Positions 16,023 to 31,508 of a stretch of 32,000 bases of DNA are shown in pieces (position 1 is the stretch's first letter; each line of letters opens with the position of its first letter). The notes under the pieces were generated by a model. It saw only the letters and a program-made list of their open reading frames with translations. It was not told the origin of the DNA and did not search any database. Location of the stretch: assembly GCF_900232105.1 (NCBI RefSeq), contig NZ_LT934425.1:1050001-1082000 (forward strand), in the 5' to 3' direction. This stretch comes from Candidatus Kuenenia stuttgartensis (GTDB taxonomy: Bacteria > Planctomycetota > Brocadiia > Brocadiales > Brocadiaceae). The position numbers and the translations under genes are program-made.

Positions 16023-16135
16023 TTCCCGGCAGTAACTTACTCTCCCAGCTTTCACCAGTACCATCAGCGTAAGAAGCTTAACTACCGTGTTCGGAATGGA
16101 AACGGGTGTTTCATTCTTACTATATCCACCGGAAA
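16023..16135 (-). rRNA. rrf: 5S ribosomal RNA
   Basis: The reverse complement reads ttccggtgg...cccgtttccattccgaacacggtagttaagc...ctgggagagtaagttactgccgggaa. The conserved CCGAAC loop and the terminal helix I pairing are present. Ends are accurate to about 3 nt. Confidence 0.9.
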
Positions 16136-16307
16136 TTATAAATTTATATCAATCAACCTCAAACTTCACTCTTTTTCAAACGATAGCATTTGAAACTAAA
16201 TCGTCAATGTGTAATATTTTTTTTGAAAAAGTATCAAAAAAATTAACAGCTTATACAATAATGAATAACTTAACGGTAACAAATTGAAACGCAATTTATA
16301 TAAAGAA

Positions 16308-19303
<2,996 letters not shown>

Positions 19304-19521
19304 ATCTTAAATAAATCGAGAATCAAATTGCTACCCGTTAAGTATTCACTTTTCAAAGAACAAACTATGTCGCAAAACTTAGTATTTCAATCTCCAACAA
19401 TGACAAATGCTGAGATATACAATATGCAGTCTACATGTGATTATACAGGCTTAAAATTAGCTATCAAAGACAGGCGACCAGTTACCGCAAGACCTAAAAA
19501 CCTTGCGCAAAGAAATCAAAC

Positions 19522-19597
19522 TGGTGGAGATGAGCGGGATCGAACCGCTAACCTCTGCCTTGCAAGGGCAGCGCTCTCCCAGTTGAGCTACATCCCC
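19522..19597 (-). tRNA. tRNA-Ala (anticodon TGC), CCA encoded
   Basis: The reverse complement ggggatgtagctcaactgggagagcgctgcccttgcaaggcagaggttagcggttcgatcccgctcatctccacca folds as a cloverleaf. It has the G3:U70 pair, anticodon loop cttgcaa and the T-loop ggttcgatcc. Confidence 0.95.
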
Positions 19598-19623
19598 CTT
19601 CAGACCGGACGTATAAAAGAAAA

Positions 19624-19701
19624 TGGTGGGCCTAAGTGGACTCGAACCACTGACCTTTCCCTTATCAGGGGAATGCTCTAAACCAACTGAGCTATAGGCC
19701 C
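19624..19701 (-). tRNA. tRNA-Ile (anticodon GAT), CCA encoded
   Basis: The reverse complement gggcctatagctcagttggtttagagcattcccctgataagggaaaggtcagtggttcgagtccacttaggcccacca has anticodon stem ttccc/gggaa and loop ctgataa. Confidence 0.95.
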
Positions 19702-19802
19702 AAACCATCGAGCAATATTTGGGCCACACTCTGTTTCCAAAGGCAATATAACTTACAAAAAAAATAGAAGCCTTTTGCGCGCGAGACAAAACCGTTACAA
19801 CA

Positions 19803-21395
<1,593 letters not shown>

Positions 21396-22154
21396 TAAAA
21401 CAACAAAAGGCTAACCAAACTAACTGGCTACTTAATTTTACATCTATTCAAAAAAAAGAAATTGTTATGGCTTTTGTACTCGCACGCAATTGACTTCTAA
21501 ATTATAAAAGAACAGAACTTCCAAAACCACTCATTTCCTTAATATACTATTTAAACTTCAGGATATCAAGCAAAAAGTAAACTTTTTTTTATTTCATACT
21601 TTCTCGACTTAGGATTAGTACTCAATGAGCAGTTTCACAAAAAAATTGAACTTCGAAGATAATACCATCAAAAACTATTATTTCAATCTTTAAATTCGAT
21701 AATATTTTGAAAATATTCTTATAACATGCAATATTACTTAGGCTTATACATTAATATTGCTTATAATATTTTTCGAATCTTTACACTATTGTGATTTTTT
21801 ACCGTCAGATGCTGCATAGAGCAAAACGACTGTAATATCTTGTCAAAATTAGACATATAAAAGATTAATAATCCGCGAGAGTTGTAATGAAAGAAATAAC
21901 TCAACAATAGGTGACAAATAGTTGAACTAAATATTGGGCAGCGTCCCTGATAACAACGAAACCAGCCGTTTCAGGCATGTATTTTCTGCTTAGGTAAACA
22001 ACTCATGGCCACAAAAAAGAATACGGCCAAACTCACAGCATTTCCAAATCTCCAGGAAAAGAAATACTTCAGGCTTAAAAAAACCCGCATAATATTTGAT
22101 ATAAAGCCAAATCCCCCCCGAATCAGACGTTTTGAAATTTTTGTCGCTTCAAAT
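21396..22154 (-). promoter_or_regulatory. AT-rich rRNA operon leader and promoter region (individual promoters not resolved)
   Basis: This is a ~760-bp non-coding AT-rich gap between the addB-like stop (22155) and the 16S 5' end. The operon promoter must lie here by position. I could not identify a convincing -35/-10 pair by eye. Confidence 0.3.
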
Positions 22155-25100
22155 TTATCTGATTTTTGTAATTTTATTAGTAATATTATTTCTGTAGTTC
22201 AGCAACCTTTCATCGTTTTCCAGCCTGAAGCGGGAAGGTTGGTGTCCCTTTCTGCATAGGGTAGCGAATTTACACCACTGACAGTTTTTTTCTTTTCCCG
22301 TGGTGGGGAACAATCCCTGGCGAATGATAGCCAGGATTTCATGGACGGTTGCCCAGAAAAATTCTTTATGCTGTGCCCATTCATTGTTATTTATGGTATT
22401 TTTTTGCAGGCATCTTTCTCCATTTTCATCATTCATGCAGCGCGCAATATAAACGAATGAAGCCTCGTCGAATATTATTTCAGAGGGAAGAGAAACCTCC
22501 TTTCTATAGGTATTTACCAGGAACTGTTCTGCCATTGATATGTAAAATGGCAGTTGCAATTTTTGTCCGCACACGGCCGCTTTTAATAAATGTTCAGTGC
22601 CTGCCTTTCCGGATTTGTAATCCACCAGCCGGAAATATATTTCCTGTCCGCTTTTTTTAACATCTATTCTGTCAATCTTTCCTTTAAAAAAAATTGCCGG
22701 ATAGTCTTCAAATTTGCCTTTTGGCAATGCTAATTGTAACCTTGCTTCCAAAAAAGCAGGGCTATAACCCGTGTGTTCAATTTGTTTAATATCCCATGAC
22801 AGGAAATGTATTAAAGCGGCGACTATTTCATCCTTTTTGAGTTCCCATAGTAGCGGATAGGGAATTGGTATTTGTTTTCCCATTTTCACAAATGATTCAT
22901 TTGCAATTTTATGCAGGTATTCAACTGGATTTGTATCGGCGGCTTTCCCATCGAAATATCCCTTTTCTTTTAAATGGCAATATAATGTGTCTAATATCTC
23001 ATGATAGATAGTGCCCAGTTTGGGCAATGATATGGTTTCACCCTTTTCCGGCTCTTCCAACGGTTCCAGTTGCAGTATTTCTCTCATAAAAAATTGGAAT
23101 GGGCATGCGCCAAACGTTTCAAGCATCGTAGGATTAAAACCTTTTTGTACACGATTTTTGTACCAATGTTCCCCATCGGAAACAATACCATCATATGCTG
23201 AGAGATAGGGGCTAAAACATTCTATAGCCTGCAACGCTGATTTGGAACGTGTATAGGCTGCCAGGTTGCCACCGATTGCATTAATGCAACATGAGGGGTC
23301 TATATGTTCCAGCACCATACGGATCACGGCCTCATTGGGTGTAAGCAGCGATATATCTTCTTTGCATAATTTATTTTTTATGCTGCGGGGAACGTTCATT
23401 TTTACAGGAGACTTGTTTTCTTTATCCTCATTGCGGGTATGTATTCCTTTTATATTTTGAAGGATGTCCATTATGTAGTGGGAAGGGGTTTTGGGTTTTC
23501 CCGCCTCATCTGAACGTTCATAAAGAAGATAAATCCTTTCCTGCGCGGCATTGAGCAGGAAATAAAATAACAAACGTTCCTCCTCAAAACCCCTTAGTTT
23601 TTCAGGAATATGATTCCCAAGCGCTTCGGATAGTATTCTTCGGGTATGGTCCGGCAAAAATGGTTCTTCAAAAATAGCGCGTGGAAACTCCTTTTCGTTC
23701 AATCCGACAAGAAACAGTATCCGGAATGGTATGCCACGAGCAGACATGGCGTTCATAACCCTGACGCCTTTATTATTAGCGGTCCCGGCTTGGATCCCTT
23801 CCTGCTTGCAGGCGTTTATGAAAGTATCTGCAAATTGATCGTATGTAATTTCTTTATCGATACGATCGAGAATAGACAATGTGTCAAACAGGCAAAATAT
23901 TCTTTCTTTAATAAAAATATCTCTTTTTATAATTTCCTGATCTATGTCTTCAGAAGGAATGTGTATATATTTATCGAGAAATAGTTTTGTTTTTTGACAC
24001 ATTTGAGACCAGGTCGCCTTTTCCTGCAGGGAAAGCAAATCATTTGACAACAACTGCACTATATTTTTCAGCGACTCAATCTGATCGCAGGAGATATTGA
24101 TATTGTGAGGCAAAATATCTTCCTCCGCTGGCTCTGCCATTGCGTTCTTTAACTGTTCAAGTTTTGACAACCAGCAGCGTATACCGCTATGGATACCATT
24201 TGTCCTGCTAATAATATCCCAGAGATTCTGCCGTGAAAGGACGTCTTTTAATTCAGGAACAGGGATATTGAAATAGGGTGATTCCAGAATATCGATAACC
24301 ATAGGACGATAAAAGTTTTCGCGATCCAGCAATAGCAATTGTTTTATCATGGTAAATAAGGGGTACTTTTCTATCGGTTCCTTGTCAAGTGTGGTAAACG
24401 GGATTGCGTTTTCCTGAAAAACCTCCTGTATAATGTTTAAATATTGCCCAAGTTCTCTTGCGACAATGCCTATATCGCCAAATACGTAACCTTTATTAAT
24501 GAGTTTGAGTATTTCCTTTGCAATCACCCATATTTCATCATGTTTGCCGGATACATTGATGATGCTAAGGTTATCCAATGAAGGGGCGTCAGGCATGGAT
24601 TCTCCATGCAGAGAGGTTTTTGTTTCCGAGTCTGCGTCCATTAAATAAGAAAACCCCTGTAGATCATCTGGGGGCAGATCCTCAATGTCCCGTGCGATCC
24701 CCAACAAAAATGATTCGTAGAAATGTTTAACGTAGGTAAAAACGGCATGATTTTTTTTGTAGGGCAAAAACAATATTGTTGGATAATATCTGAATATTTC
24801 AGAGAAAAAATCCTGTTCCACGCCGGTTAAATCATAGAAACCATATGCCAGTATATATTTGAATTTTCTGAGATATTCAGAATCAGCAGCGTGCTTTGCC
24901 GCCGAACGATAGAGGTTTGAATCGTGGGATATGCCGGATGCATTCAGCGTGTTTTGGAAAAGAGTAAATAACCGCGATATATCAGACAGTTTTTGAATAT
25001 CAGCACCGCCGGTAAGTTGCTCATTAATAACTGCCCTTAAATCATCTGCATTAACATTGGCGTCTGTGAGGTCTTGCAGAGAATGAAACATTGAGCGGGC

Positions 25101-25454
25101 AATGGATGATGGCGATATTATATTTTTTAAGGAAGGTATATGATGCCTCTCCTGTTCGATAAGTTTGGTGATAATCCGTTCGTAAATAAAAGGTTCCTGC
25201 CGGATATGCCCGATATCATTTTTTGAATTCCTGCATATTTCTCTTGCCAGGAGATAGAAATTGAGAAAAAATACGTTAAGAAACGATACGTCATGTTTCT
25301 TTACCAAACGTTCCTGAAGCCTTTCAAGCATATAGTTTGTGGGAACAATAACGGCAATGGGGGATAAGGGATCTTCGCTTTTTATGGTATGCAAAGTTTC
25401 TACAAACGAGTTCTCAAGCGAGGGATGGTAGTGCCCAAATTTAATCGATAACAT
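22155..25454 (-). CDS. addB: AddB-like helicase-nuclease subunit (inactive helicase-like N-terminus plus PD-(D/E)XK nuclease with Fe-S cysteines)
   Basis: 1099 aa from ATG 25454 (MLSIKFGHYHP); the track ORF extends 30 codons further. There is no Walker A. It has VRVMNAMSARGIPFRILFLVGLNEKEFPR, typical of AddB. The C-terminal nuclease has FGACPFQFF (Cys1), GKIDRIDV...LVDYKSGK (D...D-x-K) and CQWCKFATLC (Cys2-4). Confidence 0.8.
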   Translation of the reverse strand: MLSIKFGHYHPSLENSFVETLHTIKSEDPLSPIAVIVPTNYMLERLQERLVKKHDVSFLNVFFLNFYLLAREICRNSKNDIGHIRQEPFIYERIITKLIEQERHHIPSLKNIISPSSIARSMFHSLQDLTDANVNADDLRAVINEQLTGGADIQKLSDISRLFTLFQNTLNASGISHDSNLYRSAAKHAADSEYLRKFKYILAYGFYDLTGVEQDFFSEIFRYYPTILFLPYKKNHAVFTYVKHFYESFLLGIARDIEDLPPDDLQGFSYLMDADSETKTSLHGESMPDAPSLDNLSIINVSGKHDEIWVIAKEILKLINKGYVFGDIGIVARELGQYLNIIQEVFQENAIPFTTLDKEPIEKYPLFTMIKQLLLLDRENFYRPMVIDILESPYFNIPVPELKDVLSRQNLWDIISRTNGIHSGIRCWLSKLEQLKNAMAEPAEEDILPHNINISCDQIESLKNIVQLLSNDLLSLQEKATWSQMCQKTKLFLDKYIHIPSEDIDQEIIKRDIFIKERIFCLFDTLSILDRIDKEITYDQFADTFINACKQEGIQAGTANNKGVRVMNAMSARGIPFRILFLVGLNEKEFPRAIFEEPFLPDHTRRILSEALGNHIPEKLRGFEEERLLFYFLLNAAQERIYLLYERSDEAGKPKTPSHYIMDILQNIKGIHTRNEDKENKSPVKMNVPRSIKNKLCKEDISLLTPNEAVIRMVLEHIDPSCCINAIGGNLAAYTRSKSALQAIECFSPYLSAYDGIVSDGEHWYKNRVQKGFNPTMLETFGACPFQFFMREILQLEPLEEPEKGETISLPKLGTIYHEILDTLYCHLKEKGYFDGKAADTNPVEYLHKIANESFVKMGKQIPIPYPLLWELKKDEIVAALIHFLSWDIKQIEHTGYSPAFLEARLQLALPKGKFEDYPAIFFKGKIDRIDVKKSGQEIYFRLVDYKSGKAGTEHLLKAAVCGQKLQLPFYISMAEQFLVNTYRKEVSLPSEIIFDEASFVYIARCMNDENGERCLQKNTINNNEWAQHKEFFWATVHEILAIIRQGLFPTTGKEKNCQWCKFATLCRKGHQPSRFRLENDERLLNYRNNITNKITKIR

Positions 25455-25998
25455 ATGATACCTCAACCTTGTCTCTGCTTTTTTCTTTTGCCCTGTACAA
25501 TGCCTTGTCAGCAGATCGCAACAAAGCACTGCATTCAGTTTCATGCGACGGAAAAGAGGAAACCCCGATGCTTATCGTCAACGCAAGTTGTTTTTCAAAC
25601 ATATCTTCAAAAAACCTCCTGTTGTATACGTCGGTTAGCGCGTCTGTTATTGCGGCATGTTTGGTGAACTCCATAAGCCTGACCCTGTAAAGCGCAGATG
25701 ATGCCAATCCTGCATAAACCAATAGAAGTTTTCGCATATCCCTGTCATCCCAAAATCCCTTTTCTTTCTTTATCATCAGCACCATGCCTATCGCCATTTC
25801 CCCATAGTAAGGGGAACGTAAACGCATCCTCCTTCTTTATATTTGCTACTGAGGCAATCGCAGGCCGGTTCCGTGCTCATATCATTCACTATAAGTTCCT
25901 TTCCGGTGTGCAACACACCTGCAGCCTGAAGGATTCAGGAATATATCCGTTTTAATGAGTTCACCTTTCGGCATTGGCGAATATACGATTGGCATATC

Positions 25999-26738: not shown

Positions 26739-27352
26739 TCAAACAGTTAAGCAGCGTCCCGGTGTTCCTACTTCAATATCATTTTCTCTGTAGTACAGGC
26801 GGCTTCTGCCGTTGCTATCATAATAAGAGGCGGAAATGAGCATCTCAATACCATAACACGGTCAATGAGGTCAACATCCAGAACGAATTCCGTCCAGATG
26901 GATGCCGTATCGTAAACAGCGTCATTGAGGCGAAACCCGTCCACCATGATAAGATATCGCGAATTGTAATCGCCCAGACGCGAAAAACCCCTTGAGCCAA
27001 GATAAGAATAATTGCGGTCATAATTCACATAAAAACCCCTTATACTTCTCAAGATATTCGTAAGTGTGCGGTATCCGTATTTCTTTATATCATCGGCAGT
27101 GACAATGCTGGCGGATAAAGATAACGGGGCTTCAGTAACCTTCTGTTTGTATTTGGATGCGGCATAAACGGTAGCAACATCTATGTCTATAAGGTCTTCG
27201 ATGGTCATGCTTAGTAAATCGAGTAATGGGGTATCGGCTGGATTTTGGGTGTCTGTATACGGGTGAAACAGAGAAGGATCATTTTCTGCTTCTGCGCTGT
27301 GTGTGTAATATGATATTAACAGAAAGATAACAACTAATATGAAGGCTCTCAT
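26739..27352 (-). pseudogene. TonB-dependent receptor remnant (signal peptide and plug domain only; barrel lost)
   Basis: It has a signal peptide (MRAFILVVIFLLISYYTHSAEA) and plug motifs (VTEAPLSLSASIVTADDIKKYGYRTLTNILRSIRGF...YLIMVDGFRLND...IDRV). After IDRV the frame breaks. A +2 frame gives ISASYYDSNGRSRLYY, like an early barrel strand, and then a stop at 26739. Full-length receptors are about 650-800 aa. Confidence 0.65.
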
Positions 27353-27710: not shown

Positions 27711-29042
27711 TCAAGAAATAGTACACGTTTCACGTTGAGCGGCAGACGCTCTTCTTCCACGTATCATTTCCAGGAAACCTTCAATCCTTGTAGAAAACTG
27801 TCCAGGCATGTAGTTTTTATCGTCTACGCAATCACCATCGAGACTGAGAAAGGGGTAGCCTATTTTGTTGAGTTCTTTCTTAATAGTGGGTACGGCTGCA
27901 TTATTTCTTCTGCATCCCCATGAAGAAAATACAACAACGCCGTCAACATCGTACTCACGGGCTAGCATTTTTGCTACTTCTATGCGCCGTTCCAACGGAC
28001 CGTTATACGTATTCATGATATGTTTTCTGGCAAGGCTTTCGTATGGTTTTTGCACATCAAGCTTATCCCAGTAAACATAGTTTGTTTCTTCAAAGACAAT
28101 TTTAACATTCTCTTTTTCTTCAAGATTTTGCAGGAAATCCACATTGAAATAGGGTTTTAATTCCAGCCAGAGAATTTTGATTTGATTTGTGGGCGGGATT
28201 TTTGGGGATTTTGTCTTATTTTCTGCAATCTTTTCGCGCAATTCATTCGCCAAACTGGAATAAAATTCCAGGGCTAATCCGGAACCGATAAGCAGATAGG
28301 TGGGAAACATAAACCCTAAGGCACTGCTGCCTTTCAGAGGGCAAAGAGGATCTTTTCTTAATTCGTTGATTTCAAGAATCTTTTCCCGTGTTTTGTTTGA
28401 GTATTCAAAGGCTCGTTCTAATGCTTCATGCCTCATCTTTCTCCCTGTTGTTTTTTCCAGATATTTGACGAGATCTTCCAGTTGTTTGGCAAGGTATTGA
28501 ACGGAATATTCATCTTCTTCGTAAGGGATGTCTATCACGATCGTGTCCTTTCCCGTCAGACATTCACACAGTTTTGCTGTTTTGGTATTGTTGTCACAGA
28601 GTGTTGACGTGGCGACCTGTAGAATATTCCTCGGAAAAATGTTTCTATATGCATGGCCGATTGCAGCGCGGTGAAAGGTGCAGATATCAGTGGAAACTCC
28701 TCGTGATTCAGCTTCTATAAGGCCGCGGGAACTTTGGCCTATTCCGGCAAAAAGGGCAGCTCCGATCTCAAGGCAAAAGGGATAAAGCCCCATGGCAAAC
28801 AATATTTCCGAGGGGACAAACATGGTTGTCCATATAGTCCGGTCAGGATGCGCATACACGTTAAAAAGATGTTTTACCCCGACGTGTATCTGCACTTGCA
28901 GCGAGCGGAACCCACCGATTTTCTTGTTGCGGAAGAAAAAGAGGTATATCTTATAAAGCCGCAATCCTTCTCTGATAAGCAACTGTGAGTGTCGCTGCAT
29001 GAGCGAGGTTGCCCATTCCTTTAGTTTTAAAATTAATGACAT
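27711..29042 (-). CDS. 2-hydroxyacyl-CoA dehydratase / benzoyl-CoA reductase B/C-family subunit (HGD-D domain)
   Basis: The ORF is about 443 aa from ATG 29042; the track start at 29078 is TTG and overlaps the upstream stop by 14 nt. It has the family pattern TTMFVPSEILFAMGLYPF, conserved Cys contexts TDICTFHR and STLCDNN, and the C-terminal GYPFLSLDGDCVDDKNY...RIEGFLEMI. The start codon is uncertain. Confidence 0.8.
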   Translation of the reverse strand: MSLILKLKEWATSLMQRHSQLLIREGLRLYKIYLFFFRNKKIGGFRSLQVQIHVGVKHLFNVYAHPDRTIWTTMFVPSEILFAMGLYPFCLEIGAALFAGIGQSSRGLIEAESRGVSTDICTFHRAAIGHAYRNIFPRNILQVATSTLCDNNTKTAKLCECLTGKDTIVIDIPYEEDEYSVQYLAKQLEDLVKYLEKTTGRKMRHEALERAFEYSNKTREKILEINELRKDPLCPLKGSSALGFMFPTYLLIGSGLALEFYSSLANELREKIAENKTKSPKIPPTNQIKILWLELKPYFNVDFLQNLEEKENVKIVFEETNYVYWDKLDVQKPYESLARKHIMNTYNGPLERRIEVAKMLAREYDVDGVVVFSSWGCRRNNAAVPTIKKELNKIGYPFLSLDGDCVDDKNYMPGQFSTRIEGFLEMIRGRRASAAQRETCTIS

Positions 29043-29064
29043 AAAGAAAATTCTAACGTATTTC

Positions 29065-30984
29065 TTATTTTGGGGCAACCATTAATTGTTCAAGGAAGGC
29101 TTCAACGCGTGTTTTGATTTGTCCTTCGCTGCTTAACGAGTAGTCACAATTCAAATGGAGAAGCGGGATATTTTTTTCATAGAAAGTCTTTTTTATCATG
29201 GGATAATCCAGAAGATTATGGTCGCAGAATTTTAATGTATGATAAATTGCAGCATGGATTGATTTTTCCTGCATAATCGTTAATGCCTTATTAATCCTGT
29301 CAAAGATATTTTCCATCCGGGAGCAGGGGCTTCTTTTGATATACCGTTTTGCAATGGACAAAATAGGCTCTTCGTTTATGCTCACCACGGCGTCAAAATA
29401 CCGGCTGCCGTTACATAGGTCTTCTGCCACAACCTTTGCACCTGCATCCTCTATAATCTTCATTATCTTTTCATTCTCCATGATACTACCCCAGATGAAT
29501 AACCGCGGTACTTCGCGTGTGTCGCGTACACCTTCACCCTGCTTAATAATATGCGTTAAATAGGTGTTAAACTTCTCTGGAACTGCATTTACTCCTTTTT
29601 TCAGCAAGGAAAACATCTCGTATCCCGAATGGGCAATATATCCGTTCCAGTATTTCTGCAAACATTGTCCTACTTTTTCCCGTACCGAGTTATAGACGAC
29701 AATGCTCCGGTTGATGTCGTCAGGCAGGATTTTCATGGTGAAGTACGACTCGAGTTTCTCTTTAAATTTCTTGAGCAGGTTGGCGTAATAGTAAACCGCA
29801 GCGTCATCAATATTTTTAGGAATATCCAACATATAGTTAAATCGCCCTTTCCCTTCGTCCATTTTTACCCAGGCATCGTAAAGGCGCCTCATCCCGTCAC
29901 AGGAATTGACAAATACCATTCCCTGAAAATCCTCCAGACTACCTTCAATCTTTCTATCGGTAACAGCCTTTATATAAGGGCAGATGTTTCCGCAGAGCAC
30001 CTCGTCAGCGGCGCATGAATCATGTTCTGTCCCTTTAATCCTGACAGGATGAAACCCTGCGGCATGAATAATTTCTACCGGGGTATAAGAACAAAAATAT
30101 CCGATCTTGGGCAAATTGCTTTCTTCAATGGAAAAATCCGCGATAGAAGTTTCAAGTAAACTTTTGCTGTTGTCAGATCCTGACAGCGACACAGAGACGT
30201 TGCTTTGCGCCTGCGCTTTTTCCAGCGCTATTAACGCCGCCCCAAGCGCACCGTTAATTTGCGGCTCTCCTGAGATTTCAATTTTGCAGCCCAGGTTTTT
30301 TTCCAGCTCCGTTACTACGCCAATATTTTTAGCAACGCCGCCTGTCATGGCAACCTTTTGTTCCAACCCTACCCGTTTTACTTGTGCGGTAATACGTTTT
30401 GCGATTGAAATATGCAGTCCACGGCAAATATCCGCCGTTTTGTGGTCGGCGCCAATAAGCGATACAACCTCCGATTCTGCAAAAACGGTACAAAGGCTAC
30501 TCACGGAAACGTTATCTTTTCCGTGCAGGGAAATCTCTCCCATCTCCTCCAGCTCAATTTCCAGTGTTCTTGCCATAACTTCCAGAAAGCGGCCGGTACC
30601 GGCGGCGCACTTGTCGTTCATAACAAAATCAAGTACATTGCCATTTCCATCGATTTTGATAACCTTACTGTCCTGTCCGCCAATATCAATAATTGTCCTG
30701 GCGTCAGGAAAGTAATAATTTGCACCTTTTGCATGGCAAGTGATTTCCGTTATTACTTCATTGGCAAAAGGAACTTTTACGCGCCCATAGCCTGTGGCTA
30801 CGATATAGTTAATATCTTTTTCTGTAAGATTATGCTCTGTAAATATTTGTTGAAGGGTTTTTTCCGCAGCTTTTTTACTGCTTGCACCGGTTGCGATGAT
30901 TGTTGCAGAAAGGATCTCCTTCTTATCATTTAAAAGAATTCCATTGGTTGACATAGAACCAATGTCTATTCCGATAGTATACAT
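29065..30984 (-). CDS. Fusion protein: HgdC/BcrAD-type [4Fe-4S] ATPase activase (N-terminus) plus HGD-D dehydratase/reductase-like subunit (C-terminus)
   Basis: 639 aa. Residues 1 to about 260 have IGIDIGSMSTNG, DIGGQDSKVI, NDKCAAGTGRFLE and LCTVFAESEVVSL, the two cluster-ligand Cys contexts of HgdC as I recall them, followed by MTGGVAKN. Residues from about 290 to 639 have GYFCSYTPVEIIHAAGFHPVRI, CPYIKA, VNSCDGMRRL and LHLNCDYS...RVEAFLEQL. GGAG lies about 10 nt upstream of the ATG. Confidence 0.85.
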   Translation of the reverse strand: MYTIGIDIGSMSTNGILLNDKKEILSATIIATGASSKKAAEKTLQQIFTEHNLTEKDINYIVATGYGRVKVPFANEVITEITCHAKGANYYFPDARTIIDIGGQDSKVIKIDGNGNVLDFVMNDKCAAGTGRFLEVMARTLEIELEEMGEISLHGKDNVSVSSLCTVFAESEVVSLIGADHKTADICRGLHISIAKRITAQVKRVGLEQKVAMTGGVAKNIGVVTELEKNLGCKIEISGEPQINGALGAALIALEKAQAQSNVSVSLSGSDNSKSLLETSIADFSIEESNLPKIGYFCSYTPVEIIHAAGFHPVRIKGTEHDSCAADEVLCGNICPYIKAVTDRKIEGSLEDFQGMVFVNSCDGMRRLYDAWVKMDEGKGRFNYMLDIPKNIDDAAVYYYANLLKKFKEKLESYFTMKILPDDINRSIVVYNSVREKVGQCLQKYWNGYIAHSGYEMFSLLKKGVNAVPEKFNTYLTHIIKQGEGVRDTREVPRLFIWGSIMENEKIMKIIEDAGAKVVAEDLCNGSRYFDAVVSINEEPILSIAKRYIKRSPCSRMENIFDRINKALTIMQEKSIHAAIYHTLKFCDHNLLDYPMIKKTFYEKNIPLLHLNCDYSLSSEGQIKTRVEAFLEQLMVAPK

Positions 30985-31009
30985 AACTATAAAATCTCCT
31001 ATTTTAAGA

Positions 31010-31399
31010 TTATTCCGTTTCTGGTTTCGGCGGTATGGTGCTGACCCAAATATTTACAACAAAGAAGCCTATGGCAATGACTTCGATACCGGCAAAAATT
31101 TCTACCAGGGGATGAAGCGGGCGAAAGCAGACTAAACCTACAAGCCCGATATTTGCAAGATAGAATTGAAGTGTGCCTATTTTAGGATAGGCGAGAGGCC
31201 TGCCGGTAAATCTGGGCAGTATATGATATCCAACACCAAAGATCATCATGGACATCCATCCCAAAAGGTTTAAATGTACATGAGAAAACAATAATTGAGC
31301 GGGATAGCTTTTCATGGATATCATAACGGTACCAAGTATTGCCGCTATAAAAAAATAAACCAGGCTTGCCCGAAGAAAATTTTTCGAAAGAGGACTCAT
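31010..31399 (-). CDS. Small 4-TM membrane protein with heme-copper-oxidase subunit-I-like HxH...GW...G..Y..PR motif
   Basis: 129 aa with about four hydrophobic helices. FSHVHLNLLGWMSMMIFGVGYHILPRFTG resembles the HVHxGALGW...G..Y.L.PR helix pair of cbb3 CcoN (from memory). It has a strong SD (AAGGAG, 10-11 nt upstream) and stops 25 nt before the fusion gene. Confidence 0.7.
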   Translation of the reverse strand: MSPLSKNFLRASLVYFFIAAILGTVMISMKSYPAQLLFSHVHLNLLGWMSMMIFGVGYHILPRFTGRPLAYPKIGTLQFYLANIGLVGLVCFRPLHPLVEIFAGIEVIAIGFFVVNIWVSTIPPKPETE

Positions 31400-31480: not shown

Positions 31481-31508
31481 AGAATATATAAAAAATATGG
31501 ATTGTCAA
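31481..31508 (-). promoter_or_regulatory. Candidate sigma70-type promoter for the 31399-27711 operon
   Basis: On the minus strand, TTGACA (31508-31503) is followed by 16 nt and then TATTCT (31486-31481), about 80 nt upstream of the ATG at 31399. This is a motif match only. Confidence 0.3.

Follow-up and report, generated by a model that had tools for sequence, protein, structure and literature searches.

Enzymes that use ATP to drive electrons to very low potential through Fe-S clusters form a family in which few members have known substrates, and the [8Fe-9S] double-cubane cluster has been seen in two of its proteins. Among its members, benzoyl-CoA reductases (BCRs) use ATP stoichiometrically and form stable complexes; 2-hydroxyacyl-CoA dehydratases (HADs) need only a catalytic electron (PMC9351452). 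In the complex of the double-cubane cluster protein (DCCP) with DCCP-R, the ATPase dimer shares one [4Fe-4S] cluster on the two-fold axis of the core dimer (PMC9351452). Six cysteines of DCCP have been listed as ligands of its [8Fe-9S] double cubane (PMC7317905), and the protein reduces acetylene, hydrazine and azide in vitro (PMC9351452; PMC11971306). In BzdNO, the double cubane stores at least two electrons and feeds a three-Cys [4Fe-4S]-OH2 site at which the substrate is reduced (PMC11971306). Here we describe two genes of Candidatus Kuenenia stuttgartiensis, kuste3120 and kuste3119, that we compare with these systems. They lie in a stretch of 32,000 nucleotides of contig NZ_LT934425.1 (assembly GCF_900232105.1, positions 1,050,001 to 1,082,000), which we refer to as the window and in whose numbering all coordinates are given.

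The two genes follow a third on the reverse strand of the window. We call the three g1 (31399..31010, minus strand, 129 aa), g2 (kuste3120; 30984..29065, minus strand, 639 aa) and g3 (kuste3119; 29042..27711, minus strand, 443 aa from an ATG start). An initial annotation, made from the letters alone, had described three co-directional genes with a 25-nt gap and then an overlap or a 22-nt gap, and the open reading frame (ORF) coordinates agree with this; it had also recognised an anammox host, which is borne out by a protein 100% identical to that of Candidatus Kuenenia stuttgartiensis. Our conclusion is that g2 and g3 together encode a cytoplasmic, ATP-dependent Fe-S radical enzyme of the BCR/HAD/DCCP ('archerase') family that acts as a reductase, and to this reading we give a probability of about 0.6. 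A cytoplasmic location is likely because no signal peptide or membrane segment is visible on reading the sequence of g2 or g3.

The first 258 residues of g2 (30211..30984, minus strand) make up an ASKHA-type electron-activating ATPase, also called an archerase or activase. Pfam BcrAD_BadFG matches residues 4-253 (227.6 bits, E 2.7e-67), and the score of this half against TIGR00241, 268 bits, exceeds the cut-off of 125.4. The domain aligns over its full length with HadI (4eht, 270 bits), MbdQ and HgdC; it is most similar to HadI, and is about as close to these three as they are to one another. The two cysteine contexts singled out by the initial annotation, NDKCAAGTGRF (C126) and LCTVFAESE (C165), are indeed present and fall on the cluster cysteines of HadI and HgdC (HgdC numbering: Cys127), from which we predict C126 and C165 to be the bridging ligands of an inter-subunit [4Fe-4S] cluster. 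Neither varies, nor does C83, among 71 homologues, 59 from anammox bacteria and 12 from elsewhere. The two-cysteine ASKHA ATPase that characterises the BCR/HAD/DCCP superfamily is thus present, as judged by the TIGR00241 match and by C126 and C165 being invariant in these 71 homologues.

A Ser-rich linker of g2 (residues ~259-288; 30121..30210, minus strand), outside both domain matches, leads into a core of the HGD-D fold (residues ~289-639 and the stop codon; 29065..30120, minus strand), which Pfam HGD-D matches over residues 298-634 with 257 bits (E 4e-76; HGD-D cut-off 28.4). The description of g2 as an activase fused to an HGD-D subunit therefore stands. What had been missed is a six-Cys double-cubane motif, and because of this motif we regard the core as BzdN/DCCP-like rather than like the HAD beta subunit. 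C298, C335, C362, C524, C554 and C587 align with the ligands of DCCP (6eno/7yyl) and of BzdN (8s02_B), so that the core keeps all six [8Fe-9S] ligands, the cofactor itself being predicted from this cysteine alignment. None of the six varies among 61 anammox orthologues, and 13 of 17 partners from outside anammox bacteria retain them; HadC has just three of the six positions. The seventh cysteine of DCCP, Cys94, which is not a ligand, is missing in g2. The top NCBIfam model for the core is double_cubane (NF040772), at 202 bits against a cut-off of 350. Four further cysteines of g2, C331, C613, C187 and C233, are invariant specifically in anammox bacteria.

That g3 is a second HGD-D protein, as first annotated, is confirmed by the Pfam match over residues 86-439 (244.9 bits, E 2.3e-72), and double_cubane is again the best curated model (105 bits, cut-off 350). 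In a profile alignment that included HadB (3o3m_A), BzdO (8s02_A), MbdO and DCCP, C121, C149 and C377 of g3 fall on the three cysteines that ligate the [4Fe-4S] cluster in HadB and BzdO, and E92 occupies the position of Glu65 of BzdO. Among 50 diverse homologues the three cysteines are invariant and E92 is found in 49. By these residues g3 is a subunit of the HadB/BzdO (catalytic) type, with a predicted three-Cys [4Fe-4S] site and a conserved Glu. The pair accordingly has the two HGD-D-fold core subunits with cluster cysteines that are found across the BCR/HAD/DCCP superfamily, one of the double-cubane (N) type and one of the open-site (O) type, and the ligand residues of both are invariant across 59-70 anammox orthologues.

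A fourth cluster ligand was also considered for g3. C405, in a DGDC motif, is invariant within anammox bacteria, and an earlier count had found it in 14 of 14 non-anammox loci; this count was biased, given that those loci had been fetched by the pattern LDGDCVD. In the 50 unbiased homologues the position is Cys in only 34, and we rejected C405 as a family-wide ligand. Another cysteine, C159, is kept in 63 of 70 anammox orthologues of g3, and this residue and the four anammox-only cysteines of g2 appear from the alignments to be lineage-specific features.

By analogy with the described systems, we propose that two g2 chains would dimerise via their ATPase domains and share one [4Fe-4S] cluster, which would probably be reduced by a ferredoxin or flavodoxin. 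ATP hydrolysis would drive electrons from this cluster into the double cubane of the fused domain, which would hold more than one electron and feed the open-site [4Fe-4S] cluster of g3; this cluster would then reduce the bound substrate, probably activated as a thioester, by radical chemistry. We favour a reductase over a dehydratase because a double-cubane relay and a permanently attached ATPase fit stoichiometric use of ATP. The fusion had been taken to imply an obligate 1:1 machine, which is right in that each core carries one fused ATPase domain; however, these ATPases work as dimers sharing one cluster (PMC9351452), so that there would be one functional ATPase dimer per two N/O cores.

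The initial annotation had regarded the fusion as noteworthy in itself, a view that we do not share. In a census of the 150 best-scoring representative clusters from a library of 1.8 billion proteins, 76 are fused, 64 with HGD-D before the activase and 12 in the rarer order of g2, with the activase before HGD-D. Furthermore, most long sequences of the FldB/C family have already been described as core-activase fusions, and a ~550-aa fused 'class III DCCP' has been defined among putative double-cubane proteins (Jeoung, Martins & Dobbek 2020, PMC7317905). Because of this census and this earlier description, we conclude that fusion of ATPase and core is common rather than unusual, and that g2/g3 is the fused form, specific to one lineage, of an uncharacterised subfamily within a known enzyme family. 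Databases name such proteins 'acyl-CoA dehydratase activase' or '2-hydroxyacyl-CoA dehydratase'. It had been allowed that the fusion might prove to be a routinely annotated architecture of a characterised clade; it is common and routinely annotated, yet reaches no equivalog cut-off. The suggestion that it might be an artefact joining two genes can be set aside, as the identical fused protein is present on 104 contigs, including one of 4.4 Mb, and the same fusion occurs in all of ~60 anammox species loci.

To locate the g2+g3 pair elsewhere, GTDB species genomes were scanned with the g3 alignment. The two genes are syntenic in every anammox genus sampled, namely Kuenenia, Brocadia, Jettenia, Loosdrechtia, Wunengus, Scalindua, Anammoxibacter and Subterrananammoxibius. 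The 120 best matches to g2 are all fused, and every one of them with a taxonomic name belongs to Brocadiales or to unclassified Planctomycetota. Neighbour-joining trees, which were computed from trimmed alignments and carry no support values, recover the anammox sequences of g3 as a monophyletic group, and likewise those of the g2 core domain; in the tree sets, identity to the Kuenenia proteins is 47-97% within the anammox clades and at most 37% outside them.

Beyond these clades the three modules are mostly encoded separately, as an N-type core, an O-type core and an ATPase gene in this order (N-O-A). Unfused N-O-A genes were found at 15 genome loci, in Spirochaetota, Actinomycetota, Chloroflexota, Bacillota and Caldisericota, and as three separate genes on three long contigs (L090-L092). 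Fusion is absent from all 80 metagenome loci retrieved, of which 49 have N-O-A in full and the others in part. At two loci of Planctomycetales type (L008 and L075), the N-type core carries the ATPase at its opposite end and is followed by a homologue of g3 (40% identity). Since the relatives are either unfused or fused in reverse, the anammox fusion is, as judged from these gene arrangements, one of at least two independent fusions in an otherwise unfused and uncharacterised subfamily. Proteins fused in the same order as g2 at 31-36% identity (for example P0250) were considered as further members of this subfamily and rejected, as their downstream gene is not g3-like.

Some loci depart from these patterns. 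At four loci of Anaerolineae/Anaerolineales (L079, L080, L084 and L085), the N-type partner keeps only the equivalents of C335 and C587, and because four of the six double-cubane cysteines are gone it probably no longer binds a double cubane. In four metagenome-assembled genomes of Brocadiia/Planctomycetota (L047, L048, L049 and L052), a g3 orthologue with 50-57% identity is not preceded by g2; an overlapping ORF of ~200-228 aa stands upstream, with no Pfam match and no similarity to g2. Finally, a locus titled 'uncultured Thermodesulfobacteriota bacterium' (L056) carries a g2/g3 pair of Scalindua type within the anammox clade, its g3 being 49% identical to that of Kuenenia and its g2 split into two ORFs. 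This locus is probably mis-binned.

The genes around the pair were surveyed for clues to its substrate at the anammox loci, the 15 genome loci, the three long contigs and the 80 metagenome loci, the last of these clustered by neighbour family. The flanks of the anammox loci vary between genera: Scalindua has genes for the cell wall, Brocadiaceae those for fumarase, phosphoglycerate mutase and CvpA. Next to the unfused relatives we see 4HBT thioesterases, radical SAM/SPASM proteins, isochorismatase and QRPTase, beside a further set considered below; it is important to note that many of these loci come from few lineages, so that neighbour counts are not independent. Our view is that the recurring neighbours are housekeeping genes or reflect lineage synteny, and that no pathway emerges from them. 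The CoA-binding and thioesterase genes among them give a weak hint of thioester substrates, while the housekeeping contexts argue against a catabolic pathway.

Several points count against a reductase and temper the probability that we give it. The argument that separates reductase from dehydratase draws by analogy on only two characterised double-cubane systems. The position of the catalytic His131 of BzdO is occupied by Asn152 in g3 and varies as T/A/N/G across the family, and g2, g3 and the tested relatives all score below every curated NCBIfam equivalog cut-off. No CoA ligase, CoA transferase or beta-oxidation gene adjoins the anammox loci, which also upholds the initial statement that no CoA-transferase, CoA-ligase or acyl-CoA dehydrogenase gene neighbours the pair, at this locus and at the anammox loci alike. 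The neighbours of the unfused relatives are heterogeneous, comprising in addition HSP33, a SucD-like CoA-binding protein, CobU/His_Phos_1, NAD-salvage genes, the CCA-adding enzyme and Germane-domain proteins. No mention of kuste3119-3121 was found in the literature searched, and nothing was found in the literature that combines anammox with these family names.

One alternative is that g2 and g3 form a HAD-like, redox-neutral radical dehydratase or isomerase, in which the fused ATPase primes a single recycled electron. Such an enzyme would account for the ATPase being nearest to HadI, for HadB and HadC being the second-best matches of g3 and of the g2 core, and for the three-Cys open-site cluster and Glu that g3 shares with HadB. 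However, g2 has six double-cubane ligands where the HAD beta subunit holds a three-Cys [4Fe-4S] cluster and HadC is without three of the six, and a mechanism with a catalytic electron does not need a covalently fused, stoichiometric ATPase. The separate activator and the CoA-transferase gene that go with a three-Cys beta subunit in HAD clusters were not found here, nor does a CoA-transferase or 2-hydroxyacid dehydrogenase gene neighbour the pair in anammox loci; the scores are far under the cut-offs (HadB 80 against 750, HadC 127 against 700). We therefore consider a dehydratase unlikely, though not negligibly so. A second alternative takes the double cubane of g2 as the active site of a DCCP-like reductase of small molecules and gives g3 an accessory role or a second site; such a reductase could, in anammox bacteria, act on hydrazine that has leaked or on some other nitrogen compound. 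That DCCP reduces hydrazine, azide and acetylene (PMC9351452; PMC11971306) suits this idea, as do the double-cubane reductase being the best curated model for both the g2 core and g3, DCCP being the closest structure, and the additional anammox-invariant cysteines beside the cluster motifs (C331 and C613 of g2, C405 of g3). Against it, DCCP is homodimeric, while g2 has a conserved heterologous partner of HadB/BzdO type; Cys94, near the opening of the active site in DCCP, is missing in g2; the scores of 202 and 105 stay under the equivalog cut-off of 350; and related N-O-A operons occur in many non-anammox anaerobes without hydrazine metabolism. The chances of such a DCCP-like enzyme seem to us slim.

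A role in anammox lipid chemistry had been raised, as speculation, by the initial annotation, and would have g2 and g3 act on ether bonds or on radical steps of ladderane synthesis in the manner of PlsA/Ger. PlsA and Ger are built from the same two domain families, the route to the sn-2 ether bonds is not known, and the pair is present in all anammox lineages as a separate clade. Yet Ger and PlsA need two BcrAD_BadFG domains and DUF2229 (PF09989), whereas g2 has one BcrAD_BadFG domain and no PF09989 match at E<=0.01. The ether-lipid candidate reported in Kuenenia, a 'modified PlsA', has the architecture of two ATPase domains plus PF09989 and is a different gene, so that architecture and gene identity together rule out g2 as a PlsA/Ger protein. 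The locus is not mentioned among proposed ladderane clusters, no fatty-acid or lipid genes adjoin the anammox loci, and homologous operons occur in organisms without ladderanes. We thus found no support for the lipid link and hold it to be very improbable indeed. More broadly, the pair could have an anammox-specific job, whether the reduction of leaked hydrazine or reactive nitrogen or ladderane/ether-lipid radical chemistry, with g1 as a haem-binding partner in Brocadiaceae. We entertain this because the pair is kept throughout the anammox lineages and has invariant cysteines specific to them, and regard it as a long shot. A reductase of the BCR/HAD/DCCP family remains the reading that we prefer for g2 and g3.

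The small protein encoded by g1 (Q1Q1I7_KUEST) has four hydrophobic helices; its family, of ~130-aa proteins, occurs in Brocadiales and Nitrospirota. Its score against Pfam COX1, 33.9 bits over profile positions 314-400 of 436, lies just under the gathering score of 34.8, and it matches Pfam NnrS with E 5.7e-4. It aligns with residues ~309-400 of the cbb3 oxidase subunit CcoN, the helix-X region, where its GVGYHILPR corresponds to GALYHLVPK; H40 and H42 (HxH) land on His345 and His347 of 3mk7_A, which we take to be the helix-X ligands of haem b3 and haem b. H40, H42 and H59 are invariant in the family alignment. Compared with CcoN, however, g1 has four helices rather than 12, no CuB ligands and no second haem-b ligand, and with the helix-X HxH as its sole ligand set it does not belong to haem-copper oxidase subunit I. 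Its own function is presumably haem-related.

We considered whether g1, g2 and g3 form one functional unit, with g1 as a membrane tether or electron supply. In 36 of 36 Brocadiaceae loci with enough flank, g1 stands directly upstream of g2 on the same strand, mostly at a gap of 23-40 nt, and in Kuenenia a search for a terminator-like site between g1 and g2 found none, while a promoter-like site lies 5' of g1. This adjacency is restricted to Brocadiaceae, and in several Brocadia species the gap widens to 210-520 nt. No g1 is found beside g2 and g3 in any of the Scalinduaceae, Anammoxibacter and Subterrananammoxibius loci examined, nor beside their relatives outside Brocadiaceae (the genome loci and the 80 metagenome loci), and no membrane or signal segment is visible in the sequences of g2 and g3. 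Elsewhere, orthologues of g1 stand in unrelated contexts: alone beside a Crp regulator in a Nitrospirota genome, and adjoining DUF1858-NifU-ThiF-cysteine-desulfurase genes in Scalindua arabica and Hypogeohydataceae. We therefore find it rather improbable that the three genes are one unit. Given its absence from Scalinduaceae, the variable gaps and the unrelated contexts elsewhere, g1 is probably a separate small haem-type membrane protein, a neighbour of g2-g3 and not a part of the enzyme. It follows that the initial picture of an operon led by a mini haem-copper-oxidase-like protein does not hold, and that of the expected three-gene synteny only the g2+g3 part extends across anammox genera, g1 being adjacent only in Brocadiaceae.

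Two observations from other anammox genomes touch on g1. At L007:6001-10029 and on a Hypogeohydataceae contig, genes for g1, DUF1858, NifU, ATC_hydrolase, ThiF and a cysteine-desulfurase-type aminotransferase form a conserved string; because orthologues of g1 head the DUF1858-NifU-ThiF string, this suggests that proteins of the g1 family are themselves connected with Fe-S, sulfur or redox stress. In Scalindua, a 155-aa ORF lies upstream of the g2 orthologue (L001:7192-7659, plus strand). It was considered as an equivalent of g1 and rejected, being unrelated by sequence. A motif in this ORF, GITRIVGYYSRVNNWNKSKVGELRDR, resembles the C-terminal glycyl-radical region of anaerobic ribonucleotide reductase, and the ORF scores 22.8 bits against Pfam NRDD, below the cut-off of 26.2.

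As to the layout of the Kuenenia locus, an AAGGAG Shine-Dalgarno motif precedes g1, and the 25-nt spacer between g1 and g2 (30985..31009, minus strand) contains an AGGAG ribosome-binding site for g2. In the original annotation of kuste3119 (CAJ73876.1), g3 begins at a TTG codon (29078..27711, minus strand, 455 aa), which gives a 14-nt overlap with g2; the ATG start at 29042, 12 codons 3' of this TTG, leaves a gap of 22 nt. We prefer the 443-aa form because the alignments of g3 orthologues begin at the ATG and newer NCBI records list this form. A sigma-70-like promoter match, TTGACA-16-TATTCT (31481..31508, minus strand), precedes g1 by ~80 nt; this is agreement with a consensus only, in a region where the count of such matches is not higher than the shuffled expectation, and it marks a possible start of a g1-g2-g3 transcript.

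Further along the window, a complete rRNA operon (16024-21399, minus strand) follows g3 on its strand at a distance of ~6 kb, with genes for 16S rRNA (19811-21399), tRNA-Ile (19624-19701), tRNA-Ala (19522-19597), 23S rRNA (16305-19304) and 5S rRNA (16024-16133), all on the minus strand. Between this operon and g3 are a 194-aa ORF whose sole domain is a TonB-receptor Plug (26768-27352, minus strand) and a 128-aa GGDEF fragment (25441-25827, minus strand) that overlaps the start of a 1129-aa ORF (22155-25544). Both the Plug-only ORF and the GGDEF fragment look like gene remnants.

What the locus adds to the family is a defined subfamily made up of an N-type double-cubane core, an O-type open-site core and an ATPase, whose best-sampled and most conserved branch is that of the anammox bacteria. 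As a well-defined two-gene target, kuste3120/3119 lends itself to expression and structural work, in which a naturally tethered ATPase could help to trap the electron-transfer complex. Were the substrate to tie in with hydrazine handling or anammox lipids, the enzyme would matter for anammox physiology.

Among characterised enzymes, the Bzd/Mbd BCRs (BzdNOPQ and MbdONQP; PDB 8S02 and 9G87/9GAI) have the same predicted layout of cofactors as g2/g3. The six-ligand N subunit and three-Cys O subunit of a Bzd-type class I BCR are both recognisable in the alignments: the double-cubane ligands of BzdN, Cys36/73/100/263/293/327 (PMC11971306), correspond to C298/335/362/524/554/587 of g2, and the ligands Cys95/128/380 and Glu65 of BzdO (PMC11971306) to C121/149/377 and E92 of g3. 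In both cases an ASKHA ATPase module is held stoichiometrically. BCRs, however, have two different ATPase subunits (P and Q) as separate proteins, while the one ATPase domain of g2, which presumably forms homodimers, is joined to the N-type core, and no second ATPase gene was found in the operon or at any anammox locus examined. The His131 of BzdO is not kept in g3, no genes of aromatic degradation lie near g2/g3, sequence identity to the Bzd type is low, and the Bzd-type scores fall far short of their cut-offs (BzdN 110 against 454, BzdO 53 against 449, BzdQ 209 against 380).

DCCP/DCCP-R of Carboxydothermus hydrogenoformans (6ENO, 7YYL) provides the closest solved structure, and its family the best curated model for both core proteins. 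The seven-Cys motif, homodimeric core and curated score that define DCCP in NF040772 are not found in g2/g3: DCCP is a homodimer of one subunit, whereas here two different subunits pair, and the partner, g3, has three cysteines. The class III DCCP-like proteins share with g2 the fusion of core and ATPase, g2 having the rarer ATPase-first order. The dehydratase systems HadBC+HadI, HgdAB+HgdC and FldBC+FldI are made of the same fold families, and g3 aligns end to end with HadB. They differ in that the HAD beta subunit has three cysteines against the six of the g2 core, and in that the HAD activator is separate and sub-stoichiometric where that of g2 is fused; g2/g3 have no CoA-transferase or dehydrogenase neighbours.

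The nearest relatives of all are the N-O-A operons of uncultured Spirochaetota, Actinomycetota, Bacillota, Chloroflexota, Caldisericota and Desulfovibrio, together with the reversed N-A fusion of Planctomycetales. In these relatives a third gene of its own encodes the ATPase, or the fusion is at the opposite end, and the anammox-specific cysteines (C331, C613, C187 and C233 of g2, C159 of g3) are absent. With g2/g3 they share the three modules, the order of the core pair and mostly the same cysteine sets, at a g3 identity of 28-40%.

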